This document shows, in pieces, positions 3,001 to 29,072 of a DNA stretch of 64,000 nt. The notes below the pieces were generated by a model. The model made no database searches, was not told the DNA's origin, and saw only the letters and a program-made list of their open reading frames with translations. The translations under genes were made by a program, and so were the position numbers. Origin of the DNA: an uncultured bacterium (GTDB taxonomy: Bacteria; Patescibacteriota; Microgenomatia; Levybacterales; UBA12049); the NCBI GenBank assembly GCA_963826535.1, contig CAWGXL010000011.1, forward strand, positions 512,809-576,808. The letters run 5' to 3'. Within the stretch, counting starts at the first letter, position 1. Each line of letters starts with the position of its first letter.

Positions 3001-3242
3001 AAATTGCGGGGATCAGTAAGAGGAGAGGGAATCTTAGACTGCTCATCGCTACTTAGGGAAGACAACCATGATTTAAGCGGGGAGCAAAAGGCAAGAGACT
3101 CATGCTTTAGGCAGAGCTCATTCAACTGAGCTTTAATAGTACCGGAGAGGAAAGAGGCATTGACAGATGCCAGACCAACTAAAAACAACACAACAAGACT
3201 TGTGTTGAGCAGCCATATTTTTCGGTTTATTTGTTTAAACAT
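1..3242 (-). CDS. giant secreted repeat protein, N-terminal >1080 aa (partial; continues beyond window start)
   Basis: Uninterrupted minus-strand reading frame from ATG at 3240-3242 to position 1. N-terminus MFKQINRKIWLLNTSLVVLFLVGLASVNA is signal-peptide-like. Thr/Gly/Ser/Asn-rich body with recurring motifs (GNVGIGTTSP, RVGIGTTTP, NLGINTTSP). Plus-strand ORFs 406..912, 1163..1438, 1900..2277 and 2635..3129 are antisense artefacts. Confidence 0.7.
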   Translation of the reverse strand, partial: MFKQINRKIWLLNTSLVVLFLVGLASVNASFLSGTIKAQLNELCLKHESLAFCSPLKSWLSSLSSDEQSKIPSPLTDPRNLAAVLATNSISPRFIFTVNVESFFRENARFNKNVDIKGTLTAPNLFQSVVAGNGIAVSGAKVNPVITSTGVLSLQGQTGAVSFTGSGIDIVGTTFTNTGVTSFQGTTGAVTLTNGSGIAISGTTITNSGVLSLQGQTGSITLTPGTGIAISGTTISNQDPGSSQNIFKTITVGNTSFSASGNTDTLTFASGSGVILTSDTMNKIVSTGINLTSSGNAGVASSSSGLEVSSAGLTLLKGCANNQILKWNTTTSLWECKVDSGGLGTAGVINVENNETPVGTDVDTMDFSTDFLLTASPSNEANISIADDILSFTEFSDTLSLDASTDFLADNAEVFSLTNVGTGNSFLVNDVAGDSTPFVIDAGGNVGIGTTSPLTSLQIGAETNLGGNTSKFLISDTTVAGASILFTDFNNDAASIGINRTDDYFTLASEDSSNGIKFRVNAPWGTNPLIQGGTEAMVIQSNGRVGIGTTTPTALLDISGTASISGALKLYTTPTIQSTANQTLTLGGDTTGNIALADLTLFNAGATIASGQNLTLAGLTANNNQVLYAANTTGVVTSANTATQNLCLVSGASAPTWQSCALGAGTNFWNSSNGALYPGNSTVDLLVGGTATASAKFGFLNVAGGTPTASISANSSNNAAYLTGDGTLATTNRQTFTIGNSSAYNTTGNILLNPNGTGNVGIGTTTPDSKLSVSDSYQGFSDNIGNLRIFTTDATAIDKGGTLAFGGNADATRTFTMLGGFKESSTGSDFAGYFALGTRPSGGSTTERLRVTSTGNLGINTTSPLATLDVRGNSATTPAASISANSNFASLIVDNRGSGDLFTASKSGARKFVVNPDGYLGLAGSATLSNRYITAPNFEVVDNGDIYGQSLRNYSTVNNALVNTASTGTTISRNIADSNVALIVQQVNSSSTGDILQVKNNSATVFNVLQNGNVQINNLNGQNGVIYGTQTTGLLAQASTATQNLCLVSGASAPTWQSCALGAGTNFWNSSNGALYPGNS

Positions 3243-3579
3243 ACTAATAATCCATATCAAATACACGAATAAGATTCGTTTACTTCCTACCTAGTAAGCA
3301 AGCGAATTCAATCTTCGTTTGAAAAATGTGATTAATAGTATTTTCTGTTTATTTCTGTTTTGTATTATGGGGAATTGTTCATATACTTTAATTGAAACAT
3401 AGTAGAGATAGGGAATGCAATAGAAATGCAAGAATAAAAGGCCAATCGCTAATAAATAGATAATTTAATTGTTCTACTGGTAGGTTGTTGTACTGGTTGA
3501 GTAGTAGTTTGATAGGTTGTTGAGTTATTACTCCGGGATTGTAATATTCGCTGAACTACGCAGTCAGGTTATTGAGGGT

Positions 3580-3626: not shown

Positions 3627-4415
3627 ATGAGGCGAGTGTTCGCTTGTTTTATGGTGATTTTATTTTTTTTCTTGGTGGTGCCGTTGTGGCAAATTATTCC
3701 CGTTTCTTACGCTCAAAGTGATACTTCTTCCTCAGGAATAGCAGTTTCAATACAGGTGGTTGATAAAAAGGTTCAAGAGGGGGATATAATTACTCTTGCA
3801 CAAAAGGGGTATGCATTGGGTACTGTGCCATATGACCCTAATATTTTTGGTGTGGTTGTCAAAGATCCGGCAATCGCATTTGAGAGTAGTCAACCAGGTT
3901 CCTACCCGGTGATATCACATGGGAAAGTTTTCATGCGGGTATCAACAATTAACGGAAAGATAAAAAAGGGGGATTTGATTACGACTTCAGTTATTCCAGG
4001 AGTAGGACAGAAAGCTACAGAAACGGGTTTTATTGTTGCTTCAGCTTTGGAGGATTATGGATCTAGTTCTACAAAAGACGTCGGCAAAATTCTTGTGGTG
4101 CTTAATGTGGGGCAGGGAAATATATCAACGAATACAACCGGTAGCTTACTTAATGTATTTAAAACTGTCATGAGCGCGCCTCATCTGGCGCCATTAGCAG
4201 TGGTTAGATATATTTTTGCAGCGGTGATGGTTATATTGTCATTTGTAATTGCTGTAGGATATTTTGGCAGGATTTCAAGTTTAGGTATTGAAGCGCTGGG
4301 AAGAAATCCTTTGGCCAGCAAGATGATTACAATTGGTATAGTTTTACATGTTTTTTTAGCTCTTGTTATAGTTGCAGTTGGAGTCGCAGTTGCTTATTTC
4401 TCACTGGTGATTTAA
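3627..4415 (+). CDS. membrane protein: N-terminal signal/TM, ~170 aa extracytoplasmic domain, C-terminal ATP synthase c-subunit-like hairpin (no conserved carboxylate)
   Basis: First gene of the atp operon. C-terminus ...GIEALGRNPLASKMITIGIVLHVFLALVIVAVGVAVAYFSL resembles the c-subunit loop (ARQPE-like RNP) plus two helices. The position of the essential Glu/Asp (18 residues after the Pro) is Leu. Confidence 0.45.
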   Translation: MRRVFACFMVILFFFLVVPLWQIIPVSYAQSDTSSSGIAVSIQVVDKKVQEGDIITLAQKGYALGTVPYDPNIFGVVVKDPAIAFESSQPGSYPVISHGKVFMRVSTINGKIKKGDLITTSVIPGVGQKATETGFIVASALEDYGSSSTKDVGKILVVLNVGQGNISTNTTGSLLNVFKTVMSAPHLAPLAVVRYIFAAVMVILSFVIAVGYFGRISSLGIEALGRNPLASKMITIGIVLHVFLALVIVAVGVAVAYFSLVI

Positions 4416-4478: not shown

Positions 4479-5192
4479 ATGAGTAATGTACTGCCTGCGG
4501 AATTATATTTGACGATTGGACCGATCGCGGTTCTTTCATTGGCTTTGGCCGCTGTGGCAGTTTCTTATGTATTTTTGCTTATAAAATTGGGTAAGAGTGA
4601 AAAGGATAAAGTATTTCTGCAAAGTAAAATCAGAGATCATGCATCGGATGTTTTACGGGATGCACATGAGAAACGTTTAAGAATTCTTCAAGAGGCCACG
4701 GAAACAGCACGAACAATAATCAATAATACACAGTTATTCAGCGATGAAGCAAAGACTCAATTTGCTACTGATCTTAACACCACGCGAAGGAAACAAGATG
4801 AACTATTAAATAAAAGAAGTGAGGAAATTTCAAAGCTGTATGAGCAGTTTGCTAACGATGTGCATGCCGAGACAACAGAGCAATTTAAAGGTGTTGCAAA
4901 AAATATGGAAAACTATGCAATAACCGGAATAGGAGAATTCAAAACGGCATTGGAAAGCGAGAAGTTATACATGCAGAAGCAGCTTGAGGTAAAAGTAGAA
5001 GAGGAGTACAAAAAGGCACAAAAGAATATTGAAGATTACAAAATAGATCAAATGAAGAAGGTTGATAAAAAAGTTTTTGACATTCTGCACGCGCTGATAC
5101 GTGATGTTTTGGGTAAGTCGTTGTCCTTGAAAGATCATGAAGAACTGGTGCAAAAAGCATTGGCACAGATGCAGACTGAGATGAATACTTAG
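4479..5192 (+). CDS. atpF: F-type ATP synthase subunit b-like (N-terminal TM helix plus long coiled coil)
   Basis: N-terminal hydrophobic helix, then a charged coiled-coil body. Sits between the c-like and delta genes. Confidence 0.55.
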   Translation: MSNVLPAELYLTIGPIAVLSLALAAVAVSYVFLLIKLGKSEKDKVFLQSKIRDHASDVLRDAHEKRLRILQEATETARTIINNTQLFSDEAKTQFATDLNTTRRKQDELLNKRSEEISKLYEQFANDVHAETTEQFKGVAKNMENYAITGIGEFKTALESEKLYMQKQLEVKVEEEYKKAQKNIEDYKIDQMKKVDKKVFDILHALIRDVLGKSLSLKDHEELVQKALAQMQTEMNT

Positions 5193-5282
5193 CTATAAGA
5201 CGTACGACCTATGACGTATGACTTAAGACTATAATTTTCTTATATCTTAAAGTCTTATATCATAAGTCTTAAGTCATGGAAT

Positions 5283-5768
5283 ATGGAAGAGAAGTTATTA
5301 AAATACAAGTCTTTGATCGAACTTACTAAAACAACTGATGATGTTGTTATTCTTGACCAAGAAATTGGTTTGCTTTTGCAGAGTCTGTTTCATTTTGACA
5401 AGAGAAAATTCGAAGAAATTTTGGAAAATCAGATTCGCATACGAGTTGCTTTGGAGATACGCAAGCTTCTGCAAACAAATATACATATGAGTAAAGAGGA
5501 GATAAAAGCACTTCTTTCCACTGGATACAAAACTATTTGTGCACTTCCAATACTTAGACTTACATTAGCTTTTGAACCAAGCGAATTGGTTATTAATAAT
5601 ATTTCCTATTGGGCACGGAATAATCTAGAGAAAGGAATACTAATTGATTTATCTTTGGACAGTAGTCTATTAGGAGGAGCTATTATTATGTATAAAGGAA
5701 AATTTTATGATTATTCCCTGCGAATAAAGCTGAAAGAGATTTTTCAAAAGGGAGACCTTAGCCTTTAG
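5283..5768 (+). CDS. atpH: F-type ATP synthase subunit delta (OSCP)
   Basis: Size and operon position fit. C-terminal LGGAIIMYKGKFYDYSLRIKLKEI matches the delta C-terminal motif. Confidence 0.6.
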   Translation: MEEKLLKYKSLIELTKTTDDVVILDQEIGLLLQSLFHFDKRKFEEILENQIRIRVALEIRKLLQTNIHMSKEEIKALLSTGYKTICALPILRLTLAFEPSELVINNISYWARNNLEKGILIDLSLDSSLLGGAIIMYKGKFYDYSLRIKLKEIFQKGDLSL

Positions 5769-5817
5769 CTATCAGCTATGAGCTATCAGCTGTTAGATTA
5801 TAGGGACATGTTATTGT

Positions 5818-7371
5818 ATGAAATCTTTTACGGAATATCTTAATGAGTATAAGGAGATTGGGTTTGTTTTGAAGGTCAATGGATTTATAGTCTTTATTGT
5901 GGGACTACCATCTGCGCGTGTTGGAGAACTGGTGATTTTTGAAGATAATAGTATCGGTGAAGTTATGTCGTTTGACGGTGACTATATTGAAGTTATGGTT
6001 TTCTCCCGAACTGCGCTTAAGTCACGAACGAGGGTTTCGAGGACAGACCGTTTTTTGACTATTCCGGTTGGGGAATCACTCCTGGGTAATGTTATCGATC
6101 CTTTTGGAGCGTCTTTAAATCCAGATCAATATATTCATGAGTCTACTGCCTTTGTTCCGCTTTGGACCGAAGCCTGGGGCATTTCCAGAAGGAAACGAAT
6201 TGACCGGCCTTTTGAAACGGGAGTGAGCCTGGTTGATTTGGCCGTTCCTTTGGGACGCGGACAACGAGAACTTATTATTGGGGACCGAAAAACAGGTAAA
6301 ACTTCTTTTGTGTTACAGACAATATTATTGCAGGCACGGGCAGGATCAATCTGTATTTATGCCGGAATAGGTCGTAAAAAAGCAGATATCAAGAGGATCG
6401 AGGAATATTTTATAGAGAACAAAATACAGAAAAATACTATAATTGTGGCTGCATCTTCCCATGATCCGGCAAGTTTAATTTATTTGACGCCTTATTCCGC
6501 AATGGCAATCGCAGAGTATTTTCGTGATCAGGGGAAAGATGTTTTTGTGGTTTTCGATGATTTGGTAACCCACGCAAAATTTTACCGCGAGATAGCCCTT
6601 CTTTCGGGCAGATTTCCAGGCAGGAATTCATATCCGGCAGATATTTTTTATGCCCATTCGCAATTATTGGAGCGTGCGGGAAATTTTGTTACTTCCAATG
6701 GTGACGCCTCGATCACAGCATTTGTAGTCGCGGAAACTCCACAGGGAGATCTTTCAGGTTATATTCAGACAAATATCATGTCAATGACTGATGGACATAT
6801 CTTTTTTGATAATGATTTTTTTATGTCGGGCCGGCGTCCGGCTGTTAATCCATTCCTTTCGGTGACCAGAGTAGGAAAGCAGGTTCAGAAGCCATTAAGA
6901 CGAGATGTTAGCCGAGAACTCAATTCGTTTTTTACCTACGCACAGCGTCTGCGTAATTTCGCTCACTTTGGCGAGGAGGCTACTCAATCTGTTCGGAGTG
7001 TGCTGGAGATGGAGGTTAAGATTAATGAATTTTTTACTCAACCAATATCTTTGATTATTCCTTCTGCTTTTCAGGTTTTTGTTTTTGCACTGATTTGGCA
7101 GAATAGATGGAAGGATGTAGCTATAGAGACTATGAGAAAGGAAATCCTGCAACTGCTTAAGGTTTATGAGACTGATACAAATGTCCGGAGCTCGGTTGAC
7201 CTTATGGTTTCCGAATCTAAGACTTTGAATGATTTTTTGAATAAGATAATAAAGAGCAATTTGGAAGTGCTGCAGAAGAAGCCTGAAGTGCCGGCTGAGA
7301 AAGTGATTCCTGGGGCTGACTTGGCAGAAGAAGCGGTGAAAGCAGAAAGGCAAATAGTGAGTGGTGAATAG
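5818..7371 (+). CDS. atpA: F-type ATP synthase alpha subunit
   Basis: P-loop GDRKTGKTS. FDDLVTHAKFYREIALLSGRFPGRNSYPADIFYAHSQLLERAG closely matches the alpha consensus. Confidence 0.9.
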   Translation: MKSFTEYLNEYKEIGFVLKVNGFIVFIVGLPSARVGELVIFEDNSIGEVMSFDGDYIEVMVFSRTALKSRTRVSRTDRFLTIPVGESLLGNVIDPFGASLNPDQYIHESTAFVPLWTEAWGISRRKRIDRPFETGVSLVDLAVPLGRGQRELIIGDRKTGKTSFVLQTILLQARAGSICIYAGIGRKKADIKRIEEYFIENKIQKNTIIVAASSHDPASLIYLTPYSAMAIAEYFRDQGKDVFVVFDDLVTHAKFYREIALLSGRFPGRNSYPADIFYAHSQLLERAGNFVTSNGDASITAFVVAETPQGDLSGYIQTNIMSMTDGHIFFDNDFFMSGRRPAVNPFLSVTRVGKQVQKPLRRDVSRELNSFFTYAQRLRNFAHFGEEATQSVRSVLEMEVKINEFFTQPISLIIPSAFQVFVFALIWQNRWKDVAIETMRKEILQLLKVYETDTNVRSSVDLMVSESKTLNDFLNKIIKSNLEVLQKKPEVPAEKVIPGADLAEEAVKAERQIVSGE

Positions 7372-7470
7372 TGAATGGTGAAGGGGGAGTTAAATTGAGA
7401 TGACCTCACCCCCTGCCTGTCGGCAGTACCCTCTCCTAAAAGGAGAGGGTTATGAGGAAGATATTATTTT

Positions 7471-8349
7471 ATGAGTGATTCACAGAAAACTGTTGGAATT
7501 GATATTGAGGCGATGTTGTCGATGAAGGAGTTTATCATCAGCCATGAAGAGATCGCGGCAAGCAGCATGCGGCGGATCCGGGATGCGGTTGTAAATAGAC
7601 GGGATTTTCTCGCAGAGCTTATTCAACTTTATAATGAGGTTAAGAAGAGCTATAAGCAAGAGATTAAAGGTTCCCACAATACCAAAGGCTTAGGTGGACA
7701 GGCGAAACTGAGCGTACTTAAGAAAATTAATAAAACGGTATGCGTTTTGTTATCTACAAATACCAGCTTATATGGAGATATCGTGAGAAATACTTACGAT
7801 CTTTTTAACGATTACCAAAAGAAGGAAAATGGCGACTCGGTTATAGTGGGAAAGGTCGGCAGGCGGGTTTTTGAGGCGGATAAGCCGGGGGTAAAATTCA
7901 CTTATTTTGATTTTCCAGATACGACTATGGACAATACGCTTTTGAAAGCAATTGCTCTTCATATCATTCAATATGAAAAAGTCGTTATTTTCCATTCAAA
8001 ATTTCAGTCACTTGTACGTCAGGTTCCTACCGCATTTGTGATTTCAGAGAGTAAGATAGATGAGACAGCCAGTTCAACTGATATTAAATATATTTTTGAG
8101 CCTTCAATGGAAAAAATTATGGAATATTTTGAGAAAGAAATTTTCAGTTCTATATTTGAGCAAACAATGCATGAATCACAACTCTCGAAATTTGCATCAC
8201 GCATGGTGACTCTGGATCAGGCTACTGATAGTATTAAAAGTAGACTGTCAGAATTAAATTTAAAAGAGAGACTTTTACATCATCAAATAATAAATAAGCA
8301 ACAACTTAATTCGATAACGAGACTGGTGATGTGGAAGAGAAATAGTTAA
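7471..8349 (+). CDS. atpG: F-type ATP synthase gamma subunit
   Basis: 292 aa between alpha and beta; divergent helical N- and C-termini. Confidence 0.6.
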   Translation: MSDSQKTVGIDIEAMLSMKEFIISHEEIAASSMRRIRDAVVNRRDFLAELIQLYNEVKKSYKQEIKGSHNTKGLGGQAKLSVLKKINKTVCVLLSTNTSLYGDIVRNTYDLFNDYQKKENGDSVIVGKVGRRVFEADKPGVKFTYFDFPDTTMDNTLLKAIALHIIQYEKVVIFHSKFQSLVRQVPTAFVISESKIDETASSTDIKYIFEPSMEKIMEYFEKEIFSSIFEQTMHESQLSKFASRMVTLDQATDSIKSRLSELNLKERLLHHQIINKQQLNSITRLVMWKRNS

Positions 8350-8370
8350 AAATTCAAAGTTAAAAGTTGA

Positions 8371-9759
<1,389 letters not shown>

Positions 9760-9780
9760 TTGTTTAATAGCTAATTTTTT

Positions 9781-9900
9781 ATGAATTGTCCGGGGTCGTG
9801 GGGCGTTGTCCGCCCCTGTCTCAGCCGATAAATCGGCTTCGCAGGCGGGCTCCTCCCTTCGGTCGTCCGCCCCCTACGCTAGCCACCCCTCTCAAGAGTA
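9781..9900. repeat. GC-rich MITE-like element (family shared with 17085-17140, 19621-19830, 24784-24900) inserted between atpD and atpC
   Basis: GC-rich island in an AT-rich genome. Shares CCGGGGTC...CCCCTGTCTC...GCAGGCGGGCTCCTCCCTTCGGTCGTCCGCCCC...CCACCCCT with other loci. Internal hairpin AGCCGAT-AA-ATCGGCT. Confidence 0.6.
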
Positions 9901-9942
9901 GATTTTATTGTTTTTATGAATACTTTAACGAAAGGGAATATT

Positions 9943-10182
9943 ATGTTGGTTATTAGGCGGAAGGAGAAGGTGCTTTTTGAGGGGGAGGTTCGCGCACTAA
10001 CTACTTATAATGAACGTGGAGTTTTTGATGTACTTTATGAACACGCTAATTTTATATCAATAATTAATAAGAATTGTTTGATTCATAAGACAGATGGAAC
10101 TACAAGCGAGGTGAAGATTGAAGAAGGGATATTGCGAGTACATGAGAATAAAGCGACGGTGTATTTGGGGATAATAGGCTAA
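9943..10182 (+). CDS. atpC: F-type ATP synthase epsilon subunit (N-terminal beta-sandwich domain only)
   Basis: MLVIRRKEKVLFEGEVRALTTYNERGVFDVLYEHANFISII is epsilon-like. GGGA ribosome-binding site before ATG 9943; the ORF track alternative start is 9916. Confidence 0.6.
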   Translation: MLVIRRKEKVLFEGEVRALTTYNERGVFDVLYEHANFISIINKNCLIHKTDGTTSEVKIEEGILRVHENKATVYLGIIG

Positions 10183-10189
10183 ATTAAGT

Positions 10190-10262
10190 TAAAAGTTCAA
10201 AATTAAAAGTTATATATAATAAAAGACAAACTTTGAACTTTGTTCTTTAAACTTTTAACTTA
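10190..10262. terminator. bidirectional hairpin terminator between convergent atpC and giant gene
   Basis: Inverted repeat TTAAGTTAAAAGTT...AACTTTTAACTTAA flanked by T/A runs, built from AAAGTTC-type heptamers. Confidence 0.5.
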
Positions 10263-13200
10263 ATTTATAATCCACCAGTTAATCTTTATATCTTTGTTGA
10301 TTGTATAGGGAATTGCAATAGTAAATGATTCACCGGTTTGGCGGGCTATATATGGGCTGAGTCCTTGGGTGTCTGATGCTGCTGAGAGATAGACTAGAGA
10401 TTCAGTCTTGACATACGGACTGATAATTGTTCTTTCAGTTTCATATGCCGTTATAATAGCAGTTCCGGCTGAAGATGAGGCTATGGTTTGAACAAGGGAA
10501 GTGTCAGCTTGCGCGCCTCGGATGATGTTGAATCCATTTGCGGCGACGCGCGCGAAAATTCCTGAGCCGGAGGCAATAATATCACCTACCTGATTAACAG
10601 CAAGAATTCCACTACCTGAAGAGTTTTGAATTATTAATTTTGACTGCTGATTGTTCGATTGTTCCATTGTTCCATTGTTAAGCTCCAGGATTAGGTCTTG
10701 ATTTGGGATGGGCGCGATTAGTGAGGCTGTCAGTTTGCCTTTGACAGCAACATCTTTGGCAAAGGTTGCGTTGCCGCTAACTTTAAGATTTCCGTTGGTG
10801 TCAATGGCTACTAAGTTTCCCATAATCGAAAGATTGCCTTGACGAAGTGGTTGTAGTTCTAAGTCACTGCCTAATGTGTTTATAGTGTTATTTGCTAAAA
10901 TCAAGTTTCCGCCTACATTGAGATTTCCGGCTATGGCAACATCCGAGAGAGTTGAAGGACCCAGCACCATCATTCCTTTGGAAAATTGGGCACGGTCTGA
11001 TTTTAAGGATGGTGTATAAGCCAGTTGTCCTGATAGGGAAGAAAGATTGGCGTAATCATTTGTTAATTGTTGATTGTTGTTTATGAGCTGCAATAATTCT
11101 AAATTATCCGGTTGAGCCGGGGGAGTCACATTCTCAATGATTGGTAATCCCGATATAATCGGGACTGGTTGGTGGTTGGTGATTGATGTATTTTGTAATG
11201 CGGACGTAGTCGCGGTTGGGCTGTTGAAATTTGCAGGAGAAGAGGCTATTAGTGAGGCTGGGTATAAGCCTGCACCTTGCTCCGCAGAGTTTGATGCATT
11301 CTCCGAAGCAGAACCTGAGGCATTAAAGATATTAGTGACATTGGTTATGTAAGCAGCTGAAAGGCTTGCAGATACATTATTATCAGAGGCAAGTTGACCT
11401 GAAGTACTTGCAACAGGGTTAGGGGTTAGGGGTAGGGGTGTTGGAGAGGCTGAGGTTGAGGCTAGAGGACTTAGAAGCTTGTTAGCTTTCAGCTCCTGGC
11501 TATCAGCTATCAGATTTAACTTTATACTTAATAATTCTTCTTTGATAAATTGATCTATCGATTCCTGGATAATTGCAGCTATGTATTCTTGAAGAGTTTG
11601 GCCACCTATTGTGATATTATCTGAAGTTACCTGCAATGAATCCGTCGCTGTTTTTTCGGCCTGTATAAATCCTACTTGAATATTAGTAATAATATTTTTT
11701 GTTAAAGCTTGAATAAGGCTGGAACTAGTACCTAAATTATCTTCAAGATTATACTTTTCAGTATAACCTGTAGAAGTAGAAGGGTCAAAAAATGATAGGT
11801 TAATAAAGACTATAATTTTGCCTGTTTGGTTTGGATAGGGATTTGTATAACTTTCCAAAGCTTTTCCTATAACTGTGCCTGACTTACTGGCTTTCATAGC
11901 TACACCAGGCAGAGAGGAGCTGGTTAAAAAGTCACCTGGTTGTATTATCCCATTTTCCGAGGATACTTTAACCGGTACTCTTCCAGAAAGCGCAATTGGA
12001 ATGATATATGGATGAGCACTATCTGTCAATGCATCAGAATTTAACGTTATACCAGGACGGGTTGAAACAATACCAATGGTCTGGGATTGATAAGCTTTCA
12101 CAGTTTTAATAACTGAAGGGTTATTATTATTTTCTTCAGGCATGACAACATCTCCCGGTTCCAGAGAATCAGCTGATACATAGTTTTCCGCTACATCAGC
12201 ATTTTGTACTATTGTGTTGGCTGCATAGATTGTGCCAGATGTGTTCCCTGCGCATGGTCCTGTAGTATTTTTTACACAAAGAGACCCGGCGATTTTTAGA
12301 GTATTTTCAGGTTTATTATCGGCAATTCCTATATTCCCGTTTTGAGCTATGGTAAAACTGGGGGATCCTGATGAAGATGAGGTGAAGATATCACCAGTAG
12401 TGTTTCTTTGCCAGAAACCGCTTACGGTCGCGGTTGGGCTGGTATATATATTGTCAATATAGCCGTTATTCCAGTGTTTTGTGGCAGATCCTAGATCGTA
12501 AGTGCCAGAAGTAAAAGGGATTAAATTCGAGGCTACATTGCCTGAGATAATTAGGGAGCGATCTGCGCTTATTGTTATGCCTCCGTTTGCAATAAGCGTG
12601 TTATTTATTTTGGTCGCTCCTGAGGGCCCACCTATAGAAATAGAACTCGCAGAACCAGCGATATTTAGATTGATAGTATTAGTGTTAAGTAGATCAAAGG
12701 AGGTATTTGCCGATGTTAAGTTGTTACCATTGATGACCAGATTCCCGGCAAATATGCCTGTACCATTGTTTTCGAGGGTAAACTTAGCAGTCCCACTTGC
12801 CGAAGCGCTAATTATGGGACCTGTAGAGTTTTGATTGATAGTGAATGCTGATTGGCCACTTGAGGTGGCTAGAACTGCAAATAAATCGTCAATTTCAACT
12901 GCACCTTGGGCTGAAGTTATATTATTATTGTTTGTTGTATTTTGTAATGGTTTTTGTAGATCAATTACTCCAATTCCGTTCGGAGAGATTTCAATATTGC
13001 CATCCGATCCTGCTGTTGAATTTAAAACAAGAGTTTTGCCGGAAATGGTAAATTTACCTCCGCTCGCCTGAAAGATTGGATTAGCTTTTCCACCTATAGT
13101 AAGATTTCCAGCAGAGTCCAATGCAAGTACAACATTATTTGTTCCAGCACCATTTTTAGTTATAGGTATTAATCCCTGTAGTTTTTCTGAATTATTTGAT

Positions 13201-14717
13201 AAAGATAATGTGGCTAGTTGTTGCCTTGGTTCCAGTTCATTGTCTGTACCAACTGTCATACCAAGATATAGGTTGGGGTTTTCTGAAAAAATAGAAGATA
13301 GCAGTTGATTGTTTCTGCCTATAATTGCGGAAAATTTACCTTCTTGATTTGGTCTGATATCTTGCACTTCCTGCCATAGTAATGCAGAACCTGAGGCAGA
13401 TTGGTTATTATATAGAGCGAATCTCAGCGGAGTGACTGAGGTTATTGGATTATTCTTTTCGTCTGATATTATTCCCTGAAATCTGATAGTTTTTGGAGGA
13501 GGTATAGAAGCACTTGCAAATACAGGTTTTTGTTTACTTAAATCCGGGTAAAACGAACCATATAAAGCAGACCCAAAAAGGGTTGTAAAAATGATAAGAA
13601 TACCTACATGCAAGTAAGTTGTTATAGGATATGAATGATATATTTTGTACCATTTTGGTCTTGTATGTTTAAGGTGATGAAATATTTTTTTATGTTTTGG
13701 CAATCCATTTATGGATATGCTTAAGGGGGCGTATGTTGATTTTGGAATATTTTGAATATCATGTTTTTTGATATTTTTTGATATATTAAATATAGATAAA
13801 AGGGGAATAGTTTTTTTATTTTCATCAATTCCTGCGTGAATGTCTACCTGAAATGGCTTAAAAACGTTTCCTCCACTTAATAACCAGATAAAATGTTCAG
13901 CTTTAGATATTAGTTTTGTAATAGGCAAGGTGAGGAGAAAGTCTAATATTGTTAAATATCCTAGAGATTTTTCTATATTTTCATTTTCGTTTATTTTTTG
14001 GATATTTTGGCCTTGTATTTCTTTGAAAATACTTAGATTAGTTTTTATTTTATGTCTTGTAGTTTTTTCTGTTTGAAGATTTGGTATTTGGCTTATTTTG
14101 ACTGTTTTTTTTCCTAGCCATGAAAGGTATTTGCGTATGGAGGATAATTTACGGTTTATTGAAGTAGGAGATAAGTGGACTACTAATAACAGCCTGTTTT
14201 TATATTCATTGATGACGAATTGATCTATGTTGTTTATTATTTCTGTGTTCTGGCTAGCAATAGGCTTAGATGGTGTAACTTTTTCGAACCAAGAAAGAAA
14301 TTGTTTTATATCCATAAGGTAGTTTTTCGTAGTTAACTTTGACAGATTATCACTTAATAGATATAGCCTGAATTCGTTAAGCATAAGCCGGTCAATTGGG
14401 AGTTCTTTAGTGTCAATTTCCTGGTCGAATGGGTTGTTAATTATTACTTTATTAAATTTTAAGAAATAGAAGAAGCTTCTAAGTGAAGATAAATAGCGTT
14501 CAATTGAGCTTGTGGATGCCTTATCTTTCAGCAAAGACATTTTATAAAGTTTAATTGTCTCAATGCTTATCTTTTTTGGAATGAAGGCGGAATTAGAGTA
14601 TTCTTCGCTCCATCTTATAAATCTTCTGGCGTCAGAGATATAATTTTTAACTGTAAATTTTGACGGTTTATTTTTTTTGGATAGTAAATGTATTTTGAAT
14701 TGTTCTAAAATATTCAT
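10260..14717 (-). CDS. giant membrane/surface protein (1485 aa): two tandem phage-integrase-N-terminal SAM-like (core-binding-like) domains, TM segment, large Thr/Ser/Asn/Gly-rich extracellular repeat region
   Basis: N-terminal ~200 aa contain two repeats resembling the tyrosine-recombinase core-binding domain (KNYISDARRFIRW...IERYLSSLRSFFYFL; TKNYLMDIKQFLSWF...INRKLSSIRKYLSWL). Hydrophobic helix at about aa 360-385 (YPITTYLHVGILIIFTTLFGSALYG). No C-terminal catalytic integrase domain. Plus-strand ORFs inside are antisense artefacts. Confidence 0.75.
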   Translation of the reverse strand: MNILEQFKIHLLSKKNKPSKFTVKNYISDARRFIRWSEEYSNSAFIPKKISIETIKLYKMSLLKDKASTSSIERYLSSLRSFFYFLKFNKVIINNPFDQEIDTKELPIDRLMLNEFRLYLLSDNLSKLTTKNYLMDIKQFLSWFEKVTPSKPIASQNTEIINNIDQFVINEYKNRLLLVVHLSPTSINRKLSSIRKYLSWLGKKTVKISQIPNLQTEKTTRHKIKTNLSIFKEIQGQNIQKINENENIEKSLGYLTILDFLLTLPITKLISKAEHFIWLLSGGNVFKPFQVDIHAGIDENKKTIPLLSIFNISKNIKKHDIQNIPKSTYAPLSISINGLPKHKKIFHHLKHTRPKWYKIYHSYPITTYLHVGILIIFTTLFGSALYGSFYPDLSKQKPVFASASIPPPKTIRFQGIISDEKNNPITSVTPLRFALYNNQSASGSALLWQEVQDIRPNQEGKFSAIIGRNNQLLSSIFSENPNLYLGMTVGTDNELEPRQQLATLSLSNNSEKLQGLIPITKNGAGTNNVVLALDSAGNLTIGGKANPIFQASGGKFTISGKTLVLNSTAGSDGNIEISPNGIGVIDLQKPLQNTTNNNNITSAQGAVEIDDLFAVLATSSGQSAFTINQNSTGPIISASASGTAKFTLENNGTGIFAGNLVINGNNLTSANTSFDLLNTNTINLNIAGSASSISIGGPSGATKINNTLIANGGITISADRSLIISGNVASNLIPFTSGTYDLGSATKHWNNGYIDNIYTSPTATVSGFWQRNTTGDIFTSSSSGSPSFTIAQNGNIGIADNKPENTLKIAGSLCVKNTTGPCAGNTSGTIYAANTIVQNADVAENYVSADSLEPGDVVMPEENNNNPSVIKTVKAYQSQTIGIVSTRPGITLNSDALTDSAHPYIIPIALSGRVPVKVSSENGIIQPGDFLTSSSLPGVAMKASKSGTVIGKALESYTNPYPNQTGKIIVFINLSFFDPSTSTGYTEKYNLEDNLGTSSSLIQALTKNIITNIQVGFIQAEKTATDSLQVTSDNITIGGQTLQEYIAAIIQESIDQFIKEELLSIKLNLIADSQELKANKLLSPLASTSASPTPLPLTPNPVASTSGQLASDNNVSASLSAAYITNVTNIFNASGSASENASNSAEQGAGLYPASLIASSPANFNSPTATTSALQNTSITNHQPVPIISGLPIIENVTPPAQPDNLELLQLINNNQQLTNDYANLSSLSGQLAYTPSLKSDRAQFSKGMMVLGPSTLSDVAIAGNLNVGGNLILANNTINTLGSDLELQPLRQGNLSIMGNLVAIDTNGNLKVSGNATFAKDVAVKGKLTASLIAPIPNQDLILELNNGTMEQSNNQQSKLIIQNSSGSGILAVNQVGDIIASGSGIFARVAANGFNIIRGAQADTSLVQTIASSSAGTAIITAYETERTIISPYVKTESLVYLSAASDTQGLSPYIARQTGESFTIAIPYTINKDIKINWWIIN

Positions 14718-16230
14718 AGGCGTATCCTATATATTAGCCTTGAAATTATACAGATTATACCGTGAACTTTATACCTAATAATAGCTTATAACCTTTAGAG
14801 AAGAGTTGTCAATAGGCATAAATGATATATATTTATATATTTATATATATTATTATATATAGAAAATAAGACGAACTATTAGCAAATGCTTTGTGAAAAG
14901 TTTTTTTTAACCGTGAAAATCATTAATTTAGCCTGGTAGTACTAAATATGGGTATGGATAGGGATCTAAAGTGGAGTTAACATGGCTAGTTTTGTAAATA
15001 TACATAAATTAAAAAGTAATTTTTACTTATTTATATTCTTAAATCTTAAATTTGCTTGTCTTAACAGTCTAAATTTATTAATATTGAAAAGTATATTAGT
15101 TATTAACATTTATACGGATGATAAAGTAGGGCAAAAATTTAATCAGGTAAAGTAAATGTCTATTTCAACCCGTTTTAGATCTATTTTTATAACTTTAATA
15201 TTATATAATATGGGCTTATTTTTAATTAGTTTAACTCTATGTTTTTAGATCTTATAGTAATAGTCAACTTTTGAGTATTAATTTCTTATATACTGTCCTT
15301 AACTCTAATTTACTATTTATCAGTAGCTATTGTTGAGTGCTAGGTTATTAATATTATTATTTGGACTATATTGTTAACTAATTATGCTAATTTCGTTTGT
15401 CAGTTTATAAGCATATCTCTAATAGGGCTATTCTTTTATAGAGGTATAGAATAGCTCTTAAAATTTTATCTGGAGGGTTATTAGTTTTACTTATTTAAAT
15501 ACATTTAATATTATAAGTTTTTAGTTCGTATTTATTTTTTAAGTATAATTATTGGTAATTTCAACTCAATTATTGGGTCGTATAATGAGTTTGCCGGGGT
15601 CTTTTAATATATTATATTGTTTTTTTAGAGTTCAATTAGCTTTCAGCTAATTAAAAGTCTATCTATTTCTTAATTAAGTCAATTTTTGCTTACTAATATT
15701 GGTATTTATGTTAATAGTATCAATTACCTATATATATTTAGGTAATTAAATTTATCTTATAATTTTGCTTTATATCATTTTTTCATCAATTTAACTCATC
15801 TTAAGTAGCAGCTTTTCTTCTAGCCAGGGCCTCTGAAAGGCCATATAGGACTTTAATTCTCTTAAATAGGGGCATTGTGTACTGGAAATCTATTATCTAT
15901 TCCCTTATTATATTTTCTTTTTTACATATATTAAATCAATTCTAGGTAAACTAAACTATCCCTTATCATCAGGCTATTTTTAAGTCTTGTAGTTTTCATT
16001 TTAATCTTATAATAGTACTTCTATTTTTGTTTATAATAGTTATAATATTTGGCTTTTTTATGCCTATTTTAATATTATAGGTTAAATGGTATATATATTT
16101 ATGCTTTAAGATATTATTTACCTGTGAATTACCTTTTAGATATGGTTAGTCGCAATGAAAAGTATTAACCTACTTTATTCTAATTGCAGAGCTGTTCACA
16201 TTATTGTTAACATATTATTAGGATGAAAAT
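14718..16230. other. 1.5 kb extremely AT-rich ORF-free region
   Basis: No ORF >60 aa on either strand. Poly-TA tracts (14820-14870). Lies next to transposase remnants. Confidence 0.5.
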
Positions 16231-16232
16231 GA

Positions 16233-17040
16233 CGAAATCTGCCCTTCGTCTGTCAAGTGGGGATAAGATTATTATAATTAAGAAAGTATTAGGAGGTAAA
16301 TCTATATCCTCGTCCTGTAGAAATGCAGGAATTTCACGAACGATATTCTATAAGTGGTTAAAGCAATAGTCTAGAGGCACTCCTAATAGTATTATTAAGG
16401 ATCTTTCAGCAAGAAATCCAAAAGGAAATCAAAACTGGAGGAAAATCGAAAGCAAACTATCACGCAGGATAGTAAAATTAGCATTAAGTCATCCTGATTA
16501 TAGTATAAGAACTATTGCTACAAGTTCAGAATTAAGTATTGGTTTTGTGTGGGAATTACTTAATAATAAATCACTTGCAACTAAATCTGATAGAAATAAA
16601 AGCCTTGATGTTTATGGGAAAATATATATAGGCCGATTATAGGTAGCGATAAGGAATTGATGATTAGGAGGTTTGAAAATGGTGATTCAATTAATACAAT
16701 TTGTAGGGATTTTCGAATATCCAGAACTATATTTTATAATTGGTTAAAAAAGTATAAAAAATCTAATAGTAATATTGAAGTTTTAAAGAACAGGAGGCCA
16801 AGTGGCAATGAACATTGGAGGTTTATATCAGGTTTAAATGAAATAGTAGCAGATTTTATAACAATTCATCCGGAATGTTCATTAAATCAAATACATTAAC
16901 TAATTCTTGAGAAGAAAGGAGTTAATGTCAGTAGATCCGGTTTATAATATATTTTAAAACGTTTGGACCATAATACTGCTGATAAAAGGCTTAAATATGC
17001 AGCTGCTCACAAGCTTGTAAGCAGACAATTGTACTCAGTG
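16233..17040 (+). pseudogene. two tandem degraded copies of the N-terminal HTH region of an IS630/Tc1-like transposase (no DDE domain)
   Basis: Copy 1: MTKSALRLSSGDKIIIIKKVLGGKSISSSCRNAGISRTIFYKWLKQ* then RNPKGNQNWRKI...HPDYSIRTIA in another frame. Copy 2 (16657..16899): ...ICRDFRISRTIFYNWLKKYK...RRPSGNEHW..., then LILEKKGVNVSRSGLYNILKRL after a stop. Frames are broken by stops. Confidence 0.5.
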
Positions 17041-17084
17041 CCAGACTTAGAATTGCCTCGAATTCCAAGGTATTCGTTCCTTTC

Positions 17085-17140
17085 TTCCCCCCACCCCTGT
17101 CAAGCAGGCGTGCTCCTTGGTCCGCCTCCCCATATAATAA
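17085..17140. repeat. degenerate copy of GC-rich MITE-like element
   Basis: CCCCACCCCTGTCAAGCAGGCGTGCTCCTTGGTCCGCCTCCCC parallels the 9781 and 19621 elements. Confidence 0.4.
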
Positions 17141-17574
17141 AATAATTTCTTCCTTTGCTTATTTTTTGGGGATCTCCATTTCTACTTTTTTGTCCGCTAT
17201 ATTACTACTATATATATTTAATATTTATTCAGGAGAAAGTATACCCTATAAAATTGGAATCTTTTTTGCTTTCATCTCACTATTCCTGGGTCTTATTTTT
17301 TTTCTTTATTCCCTCAAGTATTATATTTCTATTGCGGTTGTGTTGTCATTCTCCAGACAAGTAGATTCCACTCCGTCCAGACTTAGAGGGGTAGGAGGCC
17401 ATTTGACCACGTCAAACCCTGGGGCTAGCTCAGCCTTTGCAAGATTTCTAGCTGGTGTGTTTGGGGTATCGATCAGTGTTGAGTCAGATCCTAAATTATC
17501 CGGTACGTGGCACAGCCGGTTCATATAAGCTTTCCTACATTTGTTAATTCGGGAGTGGGTTAATTTATTCTTTA

Positions 17575-17605
17575 TCTAAAAGGAAAAGGCCGCCTCAGCG
17601 GATGA
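17575..17605 (-). terminator. rho-independent terminator downstream of minus-strand surface-protein operon
   Basis: On minus strand CCGCTGAGGCGG hairpin followed by CCTTTTCCTTTT. Confidence 0.45.
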
Positions 17606-17726
17606 AATGATCAAAAGATTGCTCAATTGTTGAATTGCTATATTGTTAATTTGTTTAACATTAAGATTGAAAAATTGTTGACCTTGTAGAGGCCTAGAAG
17701 GGCAGTTAAAATTTTAAGAGTACTAG

Positions 17727-18884
17727 TTATCTATCTGTTTTTAGGCGGTATCTGACGCGGAGAAAAATAGTTATGGCTATAGCCAATGCCAGGGTAATAA
17801 CGATAATCAGTTGTAATGGTAGTGCTAAGAATACAATTGATTGGTTAAAAATAGGTCCTTTTTCGGAAAGAGCAAGGTTGAGAGTCGCTGTATAGGGACC
17901 AAGCAGAAAATTTTCATTCCAGAAAATTTTCTGCACTGAGAACTTACCTGCCTCGCCGGCAGGCAGGGAACTTTGAACTGAGGAAAAGGATGAATTTGAA
18001 CGTGTTTGATTGTTTCCCAGGTTGACTAGTTTCGTTGAAGCCTCGTCGGTGAGAGAGCGAGTGCTGGAGGAGAGAATGTTGGCAGGCGAGATATCCAGCC
18101 TGGCAATGGTTTGGCCAAAAATATTTTTGATAAAAATTATTCCTTTGGGGGTAATAAAGTGTGGTCCGGTGTTTTTAATTCTTACCGTGAATTCAACCGG
18201 GCCGGATTGGAGAAAGTTGGGAGCAGAAAATTCTTCGATTGCAGCTTGAGGCTGGTTTTTGGATCTAATAGATAGCAATACATTGGCTGCAATTCCCGCA
18301 TTTATGGTTGAGAAATTTTGATCTTGTGTATTAGCTTCAGGGGCAGGACCTACTTCTTCAGGCTGAGAGGGGGTTTGCGGGACTGAACCCGCCTCCGCCA
18401 AAGGCTTCGGCGATGCAAGAAATATTAGAGAAAAATAATAATCAGAAATTTTTTCGTTTTTGGGGATAGTGAAATGGAGTTCAAGATTTTTCTTCTGTTT
18501 TGGACCTAGCTCAAAATGGGTTGTGACGATTCCATTGTCTGTGAGGCTAATCTTACTAAAGATATTTTTGTAGGAATCGGGTGTTTGGTCGTTGAAATAT
18601 TCAATTTGTCCGGATTCGCCATATGGACGGAAAGGTTTGAAGAGTACTTGGATATTAATAGGTTCAGTTCCTTGGTTTTGTAGAGTTAAAGGTGTTTTAG
18701 ATTCTGCTGGTGGATTTAGATGGATTTGAAGTAGTGAGGGGGAAACGGAGAGAGAGATTCCGTCTGCGTTTACAGTACTAAAGTTGAAAGTTAAAAGAGC
18801 AAAGTTCAAAGTTGCAGTGCAAAGTGCAAAGTTTAAACAAAAATAAATAATTTTTAATTTTGAATTGTAGTTTTGAGTTTTCAT
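17727..18884 (-). CDS. cell-surface protein with N-terminal signal peptide and C-terminal TM anchor
   Basis: N-terminal hydrophobic leader encoded by AAAGTTC-type heptamer repeats. C-terminal LALPLQLIIVITLALAIAITIFLRVRYR anchor. Confidence 0.55.
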   Translation of the reverse strand: MKTQNYNSKLKIIYFCLNFALCTATLNFALLTFNFSTVNADGISLSVSPSLLQIHLNPPAESKTPLTLQNQGTEPINIQVLFKPFRPYGESGQIEYFNDQTPDSYKNIFSKISLTDNGIVTTHFELGPKQKKNLELHFTIPKNEKISDYYFSLIFLASPKPLAEAGSVPQTPSQPEEVGPAPEANTQDQNFSTINAGIAANVLLSIRSKNQPQAAIEEFSAPNFLQSGPVEFTVRIKNTGPHFITPKGIIFIKNIFGQTIARLDISPANILSSSTRSLTDEASTKLVNLGNNQTRSNSSFSSVQSSLPAGEAGKFSVQKIFWNENFLLGPYTATLNLALSEKGPIFNQSIVFLALPLQLIIVITLALAIAITIFLRVRYRLKTDR

Positions 18885-18885
18885 T

Positions 18886-19587
18886 TTAGTATCCCGGTGC
18901 TGCGATGTAGGTGATATTGTTCGTATATGAACCGGCGGGTTGGGTTTTGGAGATATTTACTTTATAAGTTATTTCTGCTTCTTGAACTTCCTGCATGTTG
19001 TTGTTTGACATTATTATTTGGGGAGTTTCGTTTTTTGTGAAATCAGAAAACTGTTTGTAGTAATTTTTAATCTGAAAATCTACAGGACAGTTTTTACCAA
19101 TTACATCATCACAACGATATCCGAGTCCATAGGTGAGAGTATTTTCCCATAAGGCAGTGGTAATTTCAGAGCACGAGCCATTATCGCAGGTTGAGTCGGG
19201 GATGGTTGTAGTAGTTCCTTTAATGAGTAAAGGATGGTCCTGGTATAATGTTACTATAAACTTATTTTTTATATTCGACACTGAAAGGTTTGTAGTCCTA
19301 TAGACTGGGTTAGTCGAAGTAAGGATGCCATAATCTATTATCGAGTTGGAGATGTTGAATGAGAATGGGGTTTTGGAGTCAGTGGTTTCTTTTGGGATTT
19401 GGGTGGCTTTTTCGTTTGGTAGTCGGTTTTTTTTAATACTAATAGTGGGTACTTCAGAATTAATATTTATATCATCCACTTGAATTGTCCAATTATCATC
19501 GGTTGATATTGAGGCATAGGTTTTTGACTGGTGCGAATTAAGTATTAATATTAAAGAACATAGAAATATTATGGTGAAAATTTTCAT
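18886..19587 (-). CDS. secreted Cys-containing protein, co-operonic with 17727..18884
   Basis: Signal peptide MKIFTIIFLCSLILILNS. Lies 2 nt upstream of the next gene. Confidence 0.5.
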   Translation of the reverse strand: MKIFTIIFLCSLILILNSHQSKTYASISTDDNWTIQVDDININSEVPTISIKKNRLPNEKATQIPKETTDSKTPFSFNISNSIIDYGILTSTNPVYRTTNLSVSNIKNKFIVTLYQDHPLLIKGTTTTIPDSTCDNGSCSEITTALWENTLTYGLGYRCDDVIGKNCPVDFQIKNYYKQFSDFTKNETPQIIMSNNNMQEVQEAEITYKVNISKTQPAGSYTNNITYIAAPGY

Positions 19588-19620: not shown

Positions 19621-19830
19621 TTGAAATCTCAAATTTATATGGCCGGGGTCCTTTCTCCCTCCCACCCCTGTCTCGCTTCGCTCGCAGGCGGGCTCCTTCC
19701 TTCGGTCGTCCGCCCCCAGTCTCCCACAAGTGGACTATCTTCTTAGAAGGGTCGCCACGTCCTCCTTCTCCGCCAGCTGGCGGATCGCTGCGGGCGCTCG
19801 ATGGGTTCCCCAACGCCCGCCACCCCTGAC
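19621..19830. repeat. composite GC-rich element upstream of leuS (MITE-like module + CCCACAAG-GGAC hairpin module + CTGCGGGCGCTCGATGGG module)
   Basis: Shares long blocks with 9781-9900 and 24784-24900. Internal variant of the TCCCCACAAGGGGACTACCTTCTTCGAAGGGTCG element at 19722-19765. Confidence 0.55.
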
Positions 19831-19936
19831 GCCTTTTTTTAAGAGTAATATTATACCTAACTTGTTTAAGAAGTGTAAATGTAACGGATTTACAACGGGC
19901 TTTTTTCTTTTTAAGCTGTATGCTATACTGCTGAAG

Positions 19937-27384: not shown

Positions 27385-27390
27385 AACATT

Positions 27391-29001: not shown

Positions 29002-29072
29002 TGACGCACACATCCCGCCCCTAGTTGACAACACTCCGCTTTTTCTAATAGGCTAAAGAAGTAGATTCTAAA

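Follow-up and report, generated by a model that had tools for sequence, protein, structure and literature searches.

Background

Bacteria of the Candidate Phyla Radiation (CPR, or Patescibacteria) are ultrasmall, account for a large share of bacterial diversity, live attached to host cells and carry very few recognisable regulators. The present analysis concerns a giant fibre protein encoded on the reverse strand (10260-14717) of a 64-kb stretch of contig CAWGXL010000011.1 (GenBank assembly GCA_963826535.1), from an uncultured bacterium of the Levybacterales (Microgenomatia). This stretch is referred to below as the window, and all coordinates are those of its full length. The protein joins two tandem core-binding (CB, or SAM-like) domains of the tyrosine-recombinase type to a transmembrane (TM) helix and a tail-fibre-like ectodomain, and its gene is preceded by a cis-element, an array of GTATAAT repeats, which is a new finding of the present analysis.

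Among the described systems, those nearest to the N-terminal module include the Xer recombinases. The arms of their dif sites end in (C/T)ATAA beside the spacer, and this is the part contacted by the core-binding domain.

The closest described counterpart of the locus is the Pam pilus, reported in 2026 in a Saccharimonadia parasite, in work that is also the source of the NCBIfam Pam models NF058579 and NF058581 and in which the Microgenomatia are one of the two classes highlighted (Troman et al. 2026, doi 10.64898/2026.03.03.709456). There, PamC and PamD are membrane-anchored chaperones, and Pam genes are co-located with ATP synthase genes and with a 'tail fibre-like protein', which is named once, as a node of a similarity network; the words integrase, recombinase and SAM do not occur in the text of the preprint (doi 10.64898/2026.03.03.709456). 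The locus context has therefore already been published, without an analysis of the fibre protein. No description of the SAM/CB-TM-fibre architecture, or of the array, was found in the searchable literature, and the module at its N-terminus is of a type not previously seen in membrane-tethered DNA binders or in tail-fibre-like adhesins.

Tandem core-binding domains without a recombinase

The open reading frame (ORF) was exact as first annotated, running from an ATG start to a stop codon at 10260-10262 (-) and encoding 1485 aa; an identical protein is present in NCBI/ENA, and both integrase-type signatures quoted in the first-pass annotation occur in it. That annotation had read the N-terminus as two tandem integrase core-binding domains and had made a profile search the decisive test of this reading. 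The search was positive for both repeats independently, PF02899 (Phage_int_SAM_1, Pfam gathering cut-off 22.3 bits) scoring 34.1 bits on residues 1-107 alone and 37.5 bits on residues 108-237 alone. Against the whole protein, Phage_int_SAM_1 (E=8.4e-15) and Phage_int_SAM_4 (E=1.3e-10) each matched two stretches. Domain 1 covers residues ~2-99 (14421..14714, -) and domain 2 residues ~113-206 (14100..14381, -). Over 92 aa they share 35% identity (E=8e-10), a sign that they arose by internal duplication.

Structure prediction agreed with the profiles. In an AlphaFold2 (AF2) model of residues 1-425, built from a 26-sequence alignment, both domains are four-helix bundles, with a predicted local distance difference test score (pLDDT) of ~90 for the first (90-95 over its span) and ~85-90 for the second (81-91 over its span). 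All of their best fold matches in the PDB are tyrosine-recombinase core-binding domains, including XerA (5hxy, 89 columns, root-mean-square deviation 2.7 A) and lambda Int (1z19, 95 columns, 2.4 A), with further matches to IntI, Tn1549 Int and Cre. A PHROGs search gave a marginal integrase match and nothing else. When the PDB was searched by sequence, with the protein and with the family profile, the sole return was chain 9i5v_14, a 401-aa Porphyromonas gingivalis 'RaiA' with an N-terminal integrase SAM-like domain (profile E=4.5e-8), which may be a recombinase-like/RaiA fusion or may be mislabelled; because just 34 of its residues are modelled on the ribosome, it is uninformative on the SAM domain.

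As the first-pass annotation had stated, the catalytic recombinase domain is missing. No match to the Phage_integrase catalytic family was found in the 1485-aa protein by Pfam at E<=10, and the NCBIfam XerC/XerD models (profile length ~295 positions, cut-offs 330-335 bits) aligned at profile positions ~5-98 only, reaching 55-68 bits, so that the match is limited to the first ~95 positions. None of the 120 homologs listed in detail carries a catalytic domain either. Lacking this domain, the protein cannot be an integrase. Trans_reg_C and other winged-helix families likewise gave no match in the fibre protein with Pfam or NCBIfam.

Residues invariant across the family are T22, K24, N25, Y26, D29, F33, W36, S71 and R74 in domain 1, and K131, N132, Y133, D136, F140, S186, N188, R189, K190, S192, S193, R195 and Y197 in domain 2. 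In both domains the invariant polar and basic residues group at the N-termini of helices B and D (T22/K24/N25/Y26, S71/R74, K131/N132/Y133 and S186/N188/R189/K190), presumably the helices that enter the major groove beside the crossover region in Cre, Xer and lambda-Int structures. The median net charge per domain is ~ +6 among 110 homologs, the sample used for all charge medians. From the charge and the invariant residues we infer that both domains have kept a nucleic-acid-binding surface.

A gene-specific array of GTATAAT repeats

The cis-element occupies 14735..14774 (-) and ends 17 nt before the ATG. In the window it consists of a displaced GTATAAA (14768-14774), two perfect GTATAAT units (14754-14760 and 14745-14751) and the conserved 10-mer TTCAAGGCTA (14735-14744), and it lies downstream of a sigma-70-type promoter-like site (14785..14812, -) with TTGACA at 14807-14812, a 16-nt spacer and TATAAG at 14785-14790. 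In the whole 64 kb the repeat pattern has a single occurrence, 28-43 nt ahead of the ATG, and it was absent from all of 100 shuffled sequences.

Alignment of the last 130 nt before the gene in related loci revealed the same direct repeats, GTATAAT-N2-3-GTATAAT, followed by yTyGwrGCTA. When the alignment was anchored, the consensus was a sharply bounded block of ~33 bp with a 9-bp period, ATAAT-NN-GTATAAT-CN-GTATAAT-CTCGAGGCTA, outside which the information content falls to about zero. Counts out of 80 refer, here and below, to 80 related genome loci with their flanks, cited singly by L number. The repeat pattern lies just upstream of the gene, and nowhere else in the locus, in 66 of the 80, in 65 of them on the gene strand. 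A position weight matrix (PWM), trained on metagenome contigs recovered by the motif, was then applied to 76 independent genome loci; in 72 of them its top-scoring position over the whole locus lay upstream of the gene, at a distance of 4-529 nt (median ~41). The median score of this site was 47.5 bits, whereas that of the runner-up was -9.3, a gap of ~57 bits. The association also held in the opposite direction: when metagenome contigs were fished with the motif only, a SAM-domain ORF was the first one downstream in 52 of the 59 evaluable contigs with the consensus 3' half, as against 1 of 47 with look-alike 3' halves. The element also precedes the genes of a divergent subfamily in which the first SAM domain is encoded separately.

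In 87 of 116 distinct loci the element has a near-consensus promoter with a perfect TTGACA upstream of it, compared with 7% of the shuffled sequences used as control; its -10 hexamer mostly ends 21-41 nt before the element, the distance being 15 nt in the window. Being downstream of a near-consensus promoter, the array is in the position of an operator or leader. Of the DNA-binding-type domains in these loci, only the CB pair, encoded directly downstream, is its constant companion.

Three other explanations of the array were considered, of which the first and third were rejected and the second found no support. An RNA structure is not indicated by the folding energy (z=-0.27 against shuffles), by the bounded block, which lacks flanking covariation, or by Rfam, in which no match was found. 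An invertible, phase-variable promoter, suggested by an inverted array in L060, is not supported, the longest inverted repeats in the flanks (mean 8.9 nt in 110 loci) not exceeding those in shuffles (8.6 nt). The reading as a generic strong promoter is at odds with the single copy in each locus and the absence of any further copy in ~1.2 Mb, the next-best PWM score being -9 bits.

Two further features of the leaders were recorded. A second recurrent motif, TTTTCACA, lies before or after the array (for example in L006, L010, L023 and L047, and at ~14890-14905 in the window), and many start codons stand in the context CTGCC(C)ATG with no obvious Shine-Dalgarno sequence.

Tether, membrane helix and topology

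The CB pair is followed by a putative cytoplasmic tether (residues 207-363; 13629..14099, -), which comprises a disordered linker, then an amphipathic helix (residues 257-280) and finally a basic juxtamembrane motif, HHLKHTRPKWYKIYH. In the AF2 model, pLDDT falls below 50 at 207-255 and 286-317, helices form at 257-280 and 341-362, and the juxtamembrane and TM segments make up one confident helix, 341-389. Within the juxtamembrane module, R353, P354, W356, Y357 and Y360 are invariant. The first-pass annotation had placed a TM helix after the N-terminal module, and a single one was found at residues 364-389 (13551..13628, -), conserved in the family, with a Kyte-Doolittle peak of 1.78 and a pLDDT of 87-94; it is the only strong hydrophobic segment of the 1485-aa protein.

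Residues 1-370 contain 59 Lys and Arg against 30 Asp and Glu. In the family, the loop before the TM helix bears the motif HHLRHTRPKWYKKYH and a median net charge of +12, and residues 421-700 of the ectodomain a median of -9. The fibre protein has no signal peptide. From this absence and the positive-inside charge pattern we infer an N-in/C-out topology, with the CB domains in the cytoplasm and the fibre on the cell surface, in line with the cytoplasmic N-terminus first proposed. Many homologs have an additional, weaker hydrophobic segment ~100 residues before the TM helix (252-270), with charged residues inside it and, in most homologs, basic flanks. A two-TM topology with an outside N-terminus is unlikely, the first segment being amphipathic with basic flanks and the intervening loop carrying +12.

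A family confined to CPR bacteria

A word-indexed search found 231 relatives with full-length identities of 34-58% and lengths of 1196-2254 aa, of which 120 were listed in detail; 116 of these carry the SAM families, and their pipeline names include 'site-specific integrase' and 'site-specific recombinase XerD'. An exhaustive profile search with the N-terminal module (E<=1e-30) returned 286 clusters at 50% identity; among the 150 best matches, the module begins at or near residue 1 in almost all, and the proteins reach 6048 aa. Conservation extends along the entire protein, both SAM domains included, and in complete genes the ectodomain varies from ~920 to ~3350 aa.

The survey of related genomes that the first-pass annotation had suggested thus found the same fusion widely: at least 245 stretches of species-representative genomes encode a relative, almost all from Levybacteria or other Microgenomatia, and almost all informative record titles read Levybacteria/Levyibacteriota or 'Patescibacteria group'. 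Calling the architecture unusual is apt by comparison with characterised proteins, but it is not rare. The wording 'a DNA- or partner-binding integrase module fused to a giant envelope protein' remains an accurate description. The SAMx2-TM-fibre family is cellular and confined to CPR bacteria, mainly Levybacteria. A phage origin was rejected, since 2.9 million viral contigs gave one weak partial match and the neighbours of the gene are housekeeping genes.

Many CPR contigs among L002-L080 are entitled 'uncultured Gammaproteobacteria bacterium', and some SMAG bins Sulfotelmatobacter or Methylomirabilota; given their gene content, these titles look like placeholder or wrong taxonomy.

In the split-gene subfamily, SAM1 is a separate ORF of ~165-190 aa and the second ORF encodes SAM2-TM-fibre. 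This arrangement was seen in metagenome contigs L149, L152, L161, L175, L176, L178, L179 and L108. Several of these contigs have, between the array or SAM1 and the fibre ORF, an additional ORF of ~120-130 aa that encodes a four-helix bundle and resembles a '23S rRNA intervening-sequence protein'.

A tail-fibre-like ectodomain

The ectodomain (~1100 aa) had been described at first as Thr/Asn/Gly-rich extracellular repeats. The composition holds, the region being rich in Asn, Ser, Gly and Thr, but the repeats do not: self-BLASTP (E<=1) found none, and Tandem Repeats Finder (TRF) returned trivial short arrays only. An AF2 monomer model from a 14-row alignment has a mean pLDDT of 46, with three confident domains at ~409-504, ~839-979 and ~1416-1485.

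The first of these, a membrane-proximal beta-sandwich (residues ~409-504; 13206..13493, -; pLDDT 74-90), is among the best-conserved parts of the ectodomain, with identities to the query of 0.38-0.63 over residues 421-510. It is followed by a putative beta-rich shaft with a high content of Asn, Ser, Gly and Thr (residues ~505-838; 12204..13205, -), highly conserved at 511-660; its pLDDT is ~25-45, and because the ectodomain model is mostly of low confidence we draw no claim from the shaft. The central beta-domain (residues ~839-979; 11781..12203, -; pLDDT 76-90) contains an ADVAENY motif. Beyond it come long helices at ~998-1078 (H594-623 and H638-674 in the numbering of the ectodomain model) and a Ser/Pro/Ala/Thr-rich linker reaching to ~1240 (10998..11726, -). 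This linker is poorly conserved, alignment occupancy and identity both being low over residues 1051-1230. A distal region (1241-1415) and a C-terminal beta-domain (1416-1485) complete the protein (10263..10997, -; identity to the query 0.35-0.68). The last ~70 residues have a pLDDT of 74-87 and terminate in ...INWWIIN, and a C-terminal ...FNWWIVN motif was present in 41 of the 42 complete genes checked.

With Foldseek, the central domain matched the C-terminal autochaperone fragment of phi29 gp12 (3gqh, E=4.5e-4) and the pre-mature gp12 (3suc, E=9.9e-4), and other pieces of the ectodomain matched the Pam1 tailspike, the R2 pyocin fibre and the K1 lyase C-domain. The best BFVD matches were uncharacterised caudoviral proteins and a 'preneck appendage protein', with E-values down to 2e-13. 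Pfam gave no significant match to a Peptidase_G2 or Peptidase_S74 domain in the 1485-aa protein itself; precomputed annotations of the 120 listed homologs include PF11962 (Peptidase_G2 intramolecular chaperone, IMC) in 30, PF13884 (Peptidase_S74) in 14 and PF12708 in one, so that two phage-type intramolecular-chaperone modules alternate within the family. The label 'tail-fibre-like' is thus justified, as the first-pass annotation had it. The position that it gave, the end of the protein, is not: the autochaperone-like module is internal (~839-979 of 1485), with ~500 conserved residues after it. By analogy with phage proteins that have the same autochaperone domains, the fibre is probably a trimer.

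Gene neighbourhood

Two companion genes lie upstream of the fibre gene on the same strand. The nearer encodes a 385-aa protein (17727..18884, -) with a signal peptide and a C-terminal TM anchor, an architecture that resembles PamC and PamD, the chaperones with a membrane anchor, and it gave a weak WxLIP_PGBD match (E=0.017); homologs occupy the same place in 63 of the 80 loci. The other (18886..19587, -) encodes a secreted 233-aa protein with a signal peptide, Pam pilin- or PamT-like, whose match to CPR_Pam_pilin_C (NF058581) is below the model's cut-off (E=5e-7, 29.9 bits against 55 bits). Its counterparts in L047 and L029 gave the same sub-threshold result, and the gene is present upstream on the same strand in 60 of the 80 loci. 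The fibre protein itself matched no NCBIfam family of Pam components at E<=10. We regard the region 17727-19587 (-) as a putative minimal, divergent Microgenomatia version of a Pam-type pilus module.

On the other side, the fibre gene abuts an F-type ATP synthase operon (4479-10182). Next to this, a 262-aa membrane protein (3627..4415, +), with a signal peptide and C-terminal TM helices, contains a paralog of the central beta-domain, being 34% identical over 108 aa to fibre residues ~876-983 (E=2e-16). Homologs lie in the flank in 28 of the 80 loci, and in other genomes downstream of the fibre gene, and the fibre may have a membrane partner in this protein. Another large ORF of fibre-like type (3-3266, -; more than 1088 aa) runs off the start of the window. 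It has an N-terminal signal-anchor and neither SAM domains nor Pfam or NCBIfam matches nor a GTATAAT array, and in 41 of the 80 loci homologs of it occur on the downstream side of the SAM-fibre gene.

Beyond the upstream pair, and divergently oriented, are the genes for leucyl-tRNA synthetase (LeuRS), ComEA and ComEC, the latter two within 10 kb in 29-31 of the 80 loci. In a typical unrearranged locus, ComEC, ComEA and LeuRS are on one strand, and on the other are, in order, genes for a protein of ~200 aa, the pilin-like and chaperone-like proteins, the fibre, a ~710-aa TPR protein and a protein of ~270 aa. In the window, LeuRS is represented by two overlapping ORFs (19730-21850 and 21717-22691, +), which in L047 and L029 are a single ORF of 862-887 aa; the split could be a frameshift, a sequencing error or real. 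ComEC is likewise divided into an ORF with the Competence domain (23487-24782, +) and one with the metallo-beta-lactamase domain (24913-25776, +), apparently a feature of the lineage, since L047 and L029 are split alike. The adjacent block at 25843-31352 (+), with three large ORFs of 513, 536 and 759 aa, has a GC content of 0.47-0.49 and a GC skew near zero, as against ~0.40 and a strongly positive skew in the remainder of the window. These ORFs have no homolog in the 80 related loci, and the block may be acquired DNA.

A stretch of AT-rich DNA with few ORFs, 500 nt long or more, always lies ahead of the fibre gene. In the window, the gap that divides the gene from the pilin/chaperone pair (14813-17726) reaches ~3 kb, with a GC content of ~0.26, compared with ~520-1290 nt elsewhere. 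It contains an 80-aa HTH transposase-like fragment (16657-16899, +; HTH_23, HTH_Tnp_IS630) with broken ORFs nearby, and looks like the product of insertion-sequence decay within an already AT-rich leader.

Discussion

We hold with high confidence that the architecture and the family are as described above. What the CB pair does is a matter for more guarded proposals. The one that we prefer is that the CB domains would retain the DNA-binding role that they have in Xer recombinases, and that their predicted target would be the GTATAAT array within the leader of the fibre gene itself, which would make the protein a ToxR-like membrane-tethered DNA binder. Binding might then have either of two outcomes, a roadblock at about +15 to +50 that represses the protein's own costly gene, or retention of the gene's own locus at the membrane, and host contact, tension on the fibre or its cleavage might modulate it. 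The array is the most economical target, since these loci have no other DNA site that is both conserved and gene-specific, and the CB pair is always present with it. Arranged head-to-tail in one chain, the two domains would suit direct repeats about one helical turn apart, and the GTATAAT units resemble Xer/dif half-sites. The Pam-type neighbourhood and the gene-specific element together make a DNA-binding role of the module more than a guess. Taken jointly, the claims that the CB domains still bind DNA and that they bind this array are tentative, and we would put their chances somewhat below even. More doubtful is the fuller proposal of a wire from the outside to the DNA, in which a trimeric fibre beside a Pam pilus would, through predicted CB binding to dif-arm-like GTATAAT half-sites, convert events at the surface into promoter occupancy or locus tethering.

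Several points weigh against these proposals. When separated from the catalytic domain, the CB domains of recombinases are as a rule weak DNA binders. Three units, one of them degenerate, are usual in the array, for two CB domains, and the stoichiometry therefore has no obvious match. The units are also perfect -10 hexamers downstream of a promoter, and as such would fit sigma-dependent pausing or an ops-like antitermination leader without any part for the CB domains. Since the element is found at the fibre gene only, the regulon of the protein, if it is a regulator, would be itself alone. Among the loci, L067 has no array, and L060 has, as the sole such case in 80, a three-unit array in inverted orientation ~450 nt upstream of the fibre gene (9533-9557), without flanking inverted repeats. 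The topology is a prediction from the positive-inside rule, and trimer formation and cleavage are predicted from homologous modules, the monomer model being mostly of low confidence.

The array and the CB module might instead be independent of one another, the former acting on RNA polymerase and the latter binding DNA non-specifically. A role of the array as a sigma-70-dependent promoter-proximal pause, or as an ops/JUMPStart-like site at which antitermination factors are loaded for a gene of 4.5-18 kb, would fit its perfect -10 hexamers, which lie downstream of a consensus promoter at a distance of 21-41 nt; sigma-dependent pause elements have this geometry, and long genes, such as those of family members that reach 6048 aa, often need processive antitermination. 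The units, their spacers and CTCGAGGCTA are conserved, however, although the proteins are ~35% identical, which is beyond what a pause hexamer needs; the second fibre-like gene and the pilus genes lack the element, which is unique in each locus, and the conserved neighbourhood showed neither a NusG paralog nor a Q-like gene. The CB domains, which are basic, could for their part tether the nucleoid to the envelope at the site of the fibre and pilus, or handle incoming DNA, as the nearby ComEA and ComEC genes would allow, but the latter linkage could simply be inherited gene order, since LeuRS is linked to the same extent. We consider this independence, the main rival reading, unlikely.

Still less probable in our judgement is that the bundles no longer bind DNA and form a cytoplasmic hub for protein interaction or oligomerisation, organising the base of the fibre, docking it to the Pam pilus or envelope, or recruiting a true Xer recombinase or a division protein. 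The missing catalytic domain, which normally completes the DNA clamp, and the conserved juxtamembrane module after the CB pair would both be accommodated, as would the consistent co-location with the Pam-like pilin/chaperone pair, to which the preprint adds ATP synthase genes (doi 10.64898/2026.03.03.709456). But a hub does not call for residues conserved at the canonical CB signature positions, invariant basic ones included, or for a net positive charge kept in both domains, and it leaves the gene-specific element without a binding partner. That the names 'site-specific integrase' and 'site-specific recombinase XerD' borne by homologs are correct, or that the gene is a decayed or mis-assembled integrase fusion or, as the phage-like folds of the ectodomain might suggest, a prophage tail-fibre gene, is barely credible. 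The integrase annotation is refuted by the absence of the catalytic domain from this protein and from its listed homologs; decay and mis-assembly are ruled out by the conservation of the full-length architecture, at 34-58% identity, across over 200 proteins and no fewer than 245 species genomes; and the prophage version is contradicted by the housekeeping neighbours and the one weak viral-contig match.

If the predicted binding is true, the family would be a new class of membrane-tethered DNA binders that links the Pam pilus neighbourhood to regulation, and would provide the first case in which Xer-type CB domains have been exapted for sequence-specific DNA binding as a stand-alone module tethered to the membrane. 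The fibre module and the element form a testable protein-DNA pair of ~200 aa and ~40 bp, and should binding not be confirmed, the element is still a clean candidate for a leader or pause signal in the expression of giant genes in CPR bacteria. Independently of this, the family exemplifies the reuse of recombinase core-binding domains without the enzyme, and its systematic mis-annotation as integrase inflates counts of mobile-element genes in CPR genomes.

Comparison with known systems

What the array shares with sigma-70 pause sites and ops leaders is the presence of -10-like hexamers in the part of a long gene that is transcribed first. It differs from them in consisting of two or three perfectly phased copies with a conserved 10-mer, in one gene family only, and no cognate factor was identified for the array as an element of this type.

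The presence together in the window of pilin-like, membrane-anchored chaperone-like, ATP synthase and tail-fibre-like genes recalls the Pam neighbourhood of Troman et al., and the fibre is probably the 'tail fibre-like protein' of their preprint. The difference is that the pilin-like protein of the window matches the Pam models only below threshold.

With phage appendages, the likeness is in the central domain, which matches the phi29 gp12 structures and has a D-x-A-E motif at its start, as homologs with PF11962 or PF13884 at the same position also relate it to the Peptidase_G2 and Peptidase_S74 modules. In phage tailspikes, however, the intramolecular chaperone is C-terminal and disposable, whereas that of the fibre is internal and followed by ~500 conserved residues, and the fibre is a cellular, membrane-anchored protein outside any virion.

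XerC and XerD are the best NCBIfam matches of the fibre, whose two N-terminal domains match the CB/SAM-like profiles above threshold and have the same four-helix fold. Unlike these enzymes, it has two CB domains in tandem and no catalytic domain, and can neither cleave nor rejoin DNA, and a TM helix with a giant ectodomain is attached to its CB module.

In its overall order, a predicted cytoplasmic DNA-binding module followed by a linker, a TM helix and an extracytoplasmic domain, with a candidate operator at its own promoter, the fibre protein is like ToxR, TcpP and CadC. Those proteins use an OmpR-type winged helix and a small sensor domain, in contrast to the recombinase CB bundle of the fibre and to the outer domain of its family, which measures 1100-5600 aa.

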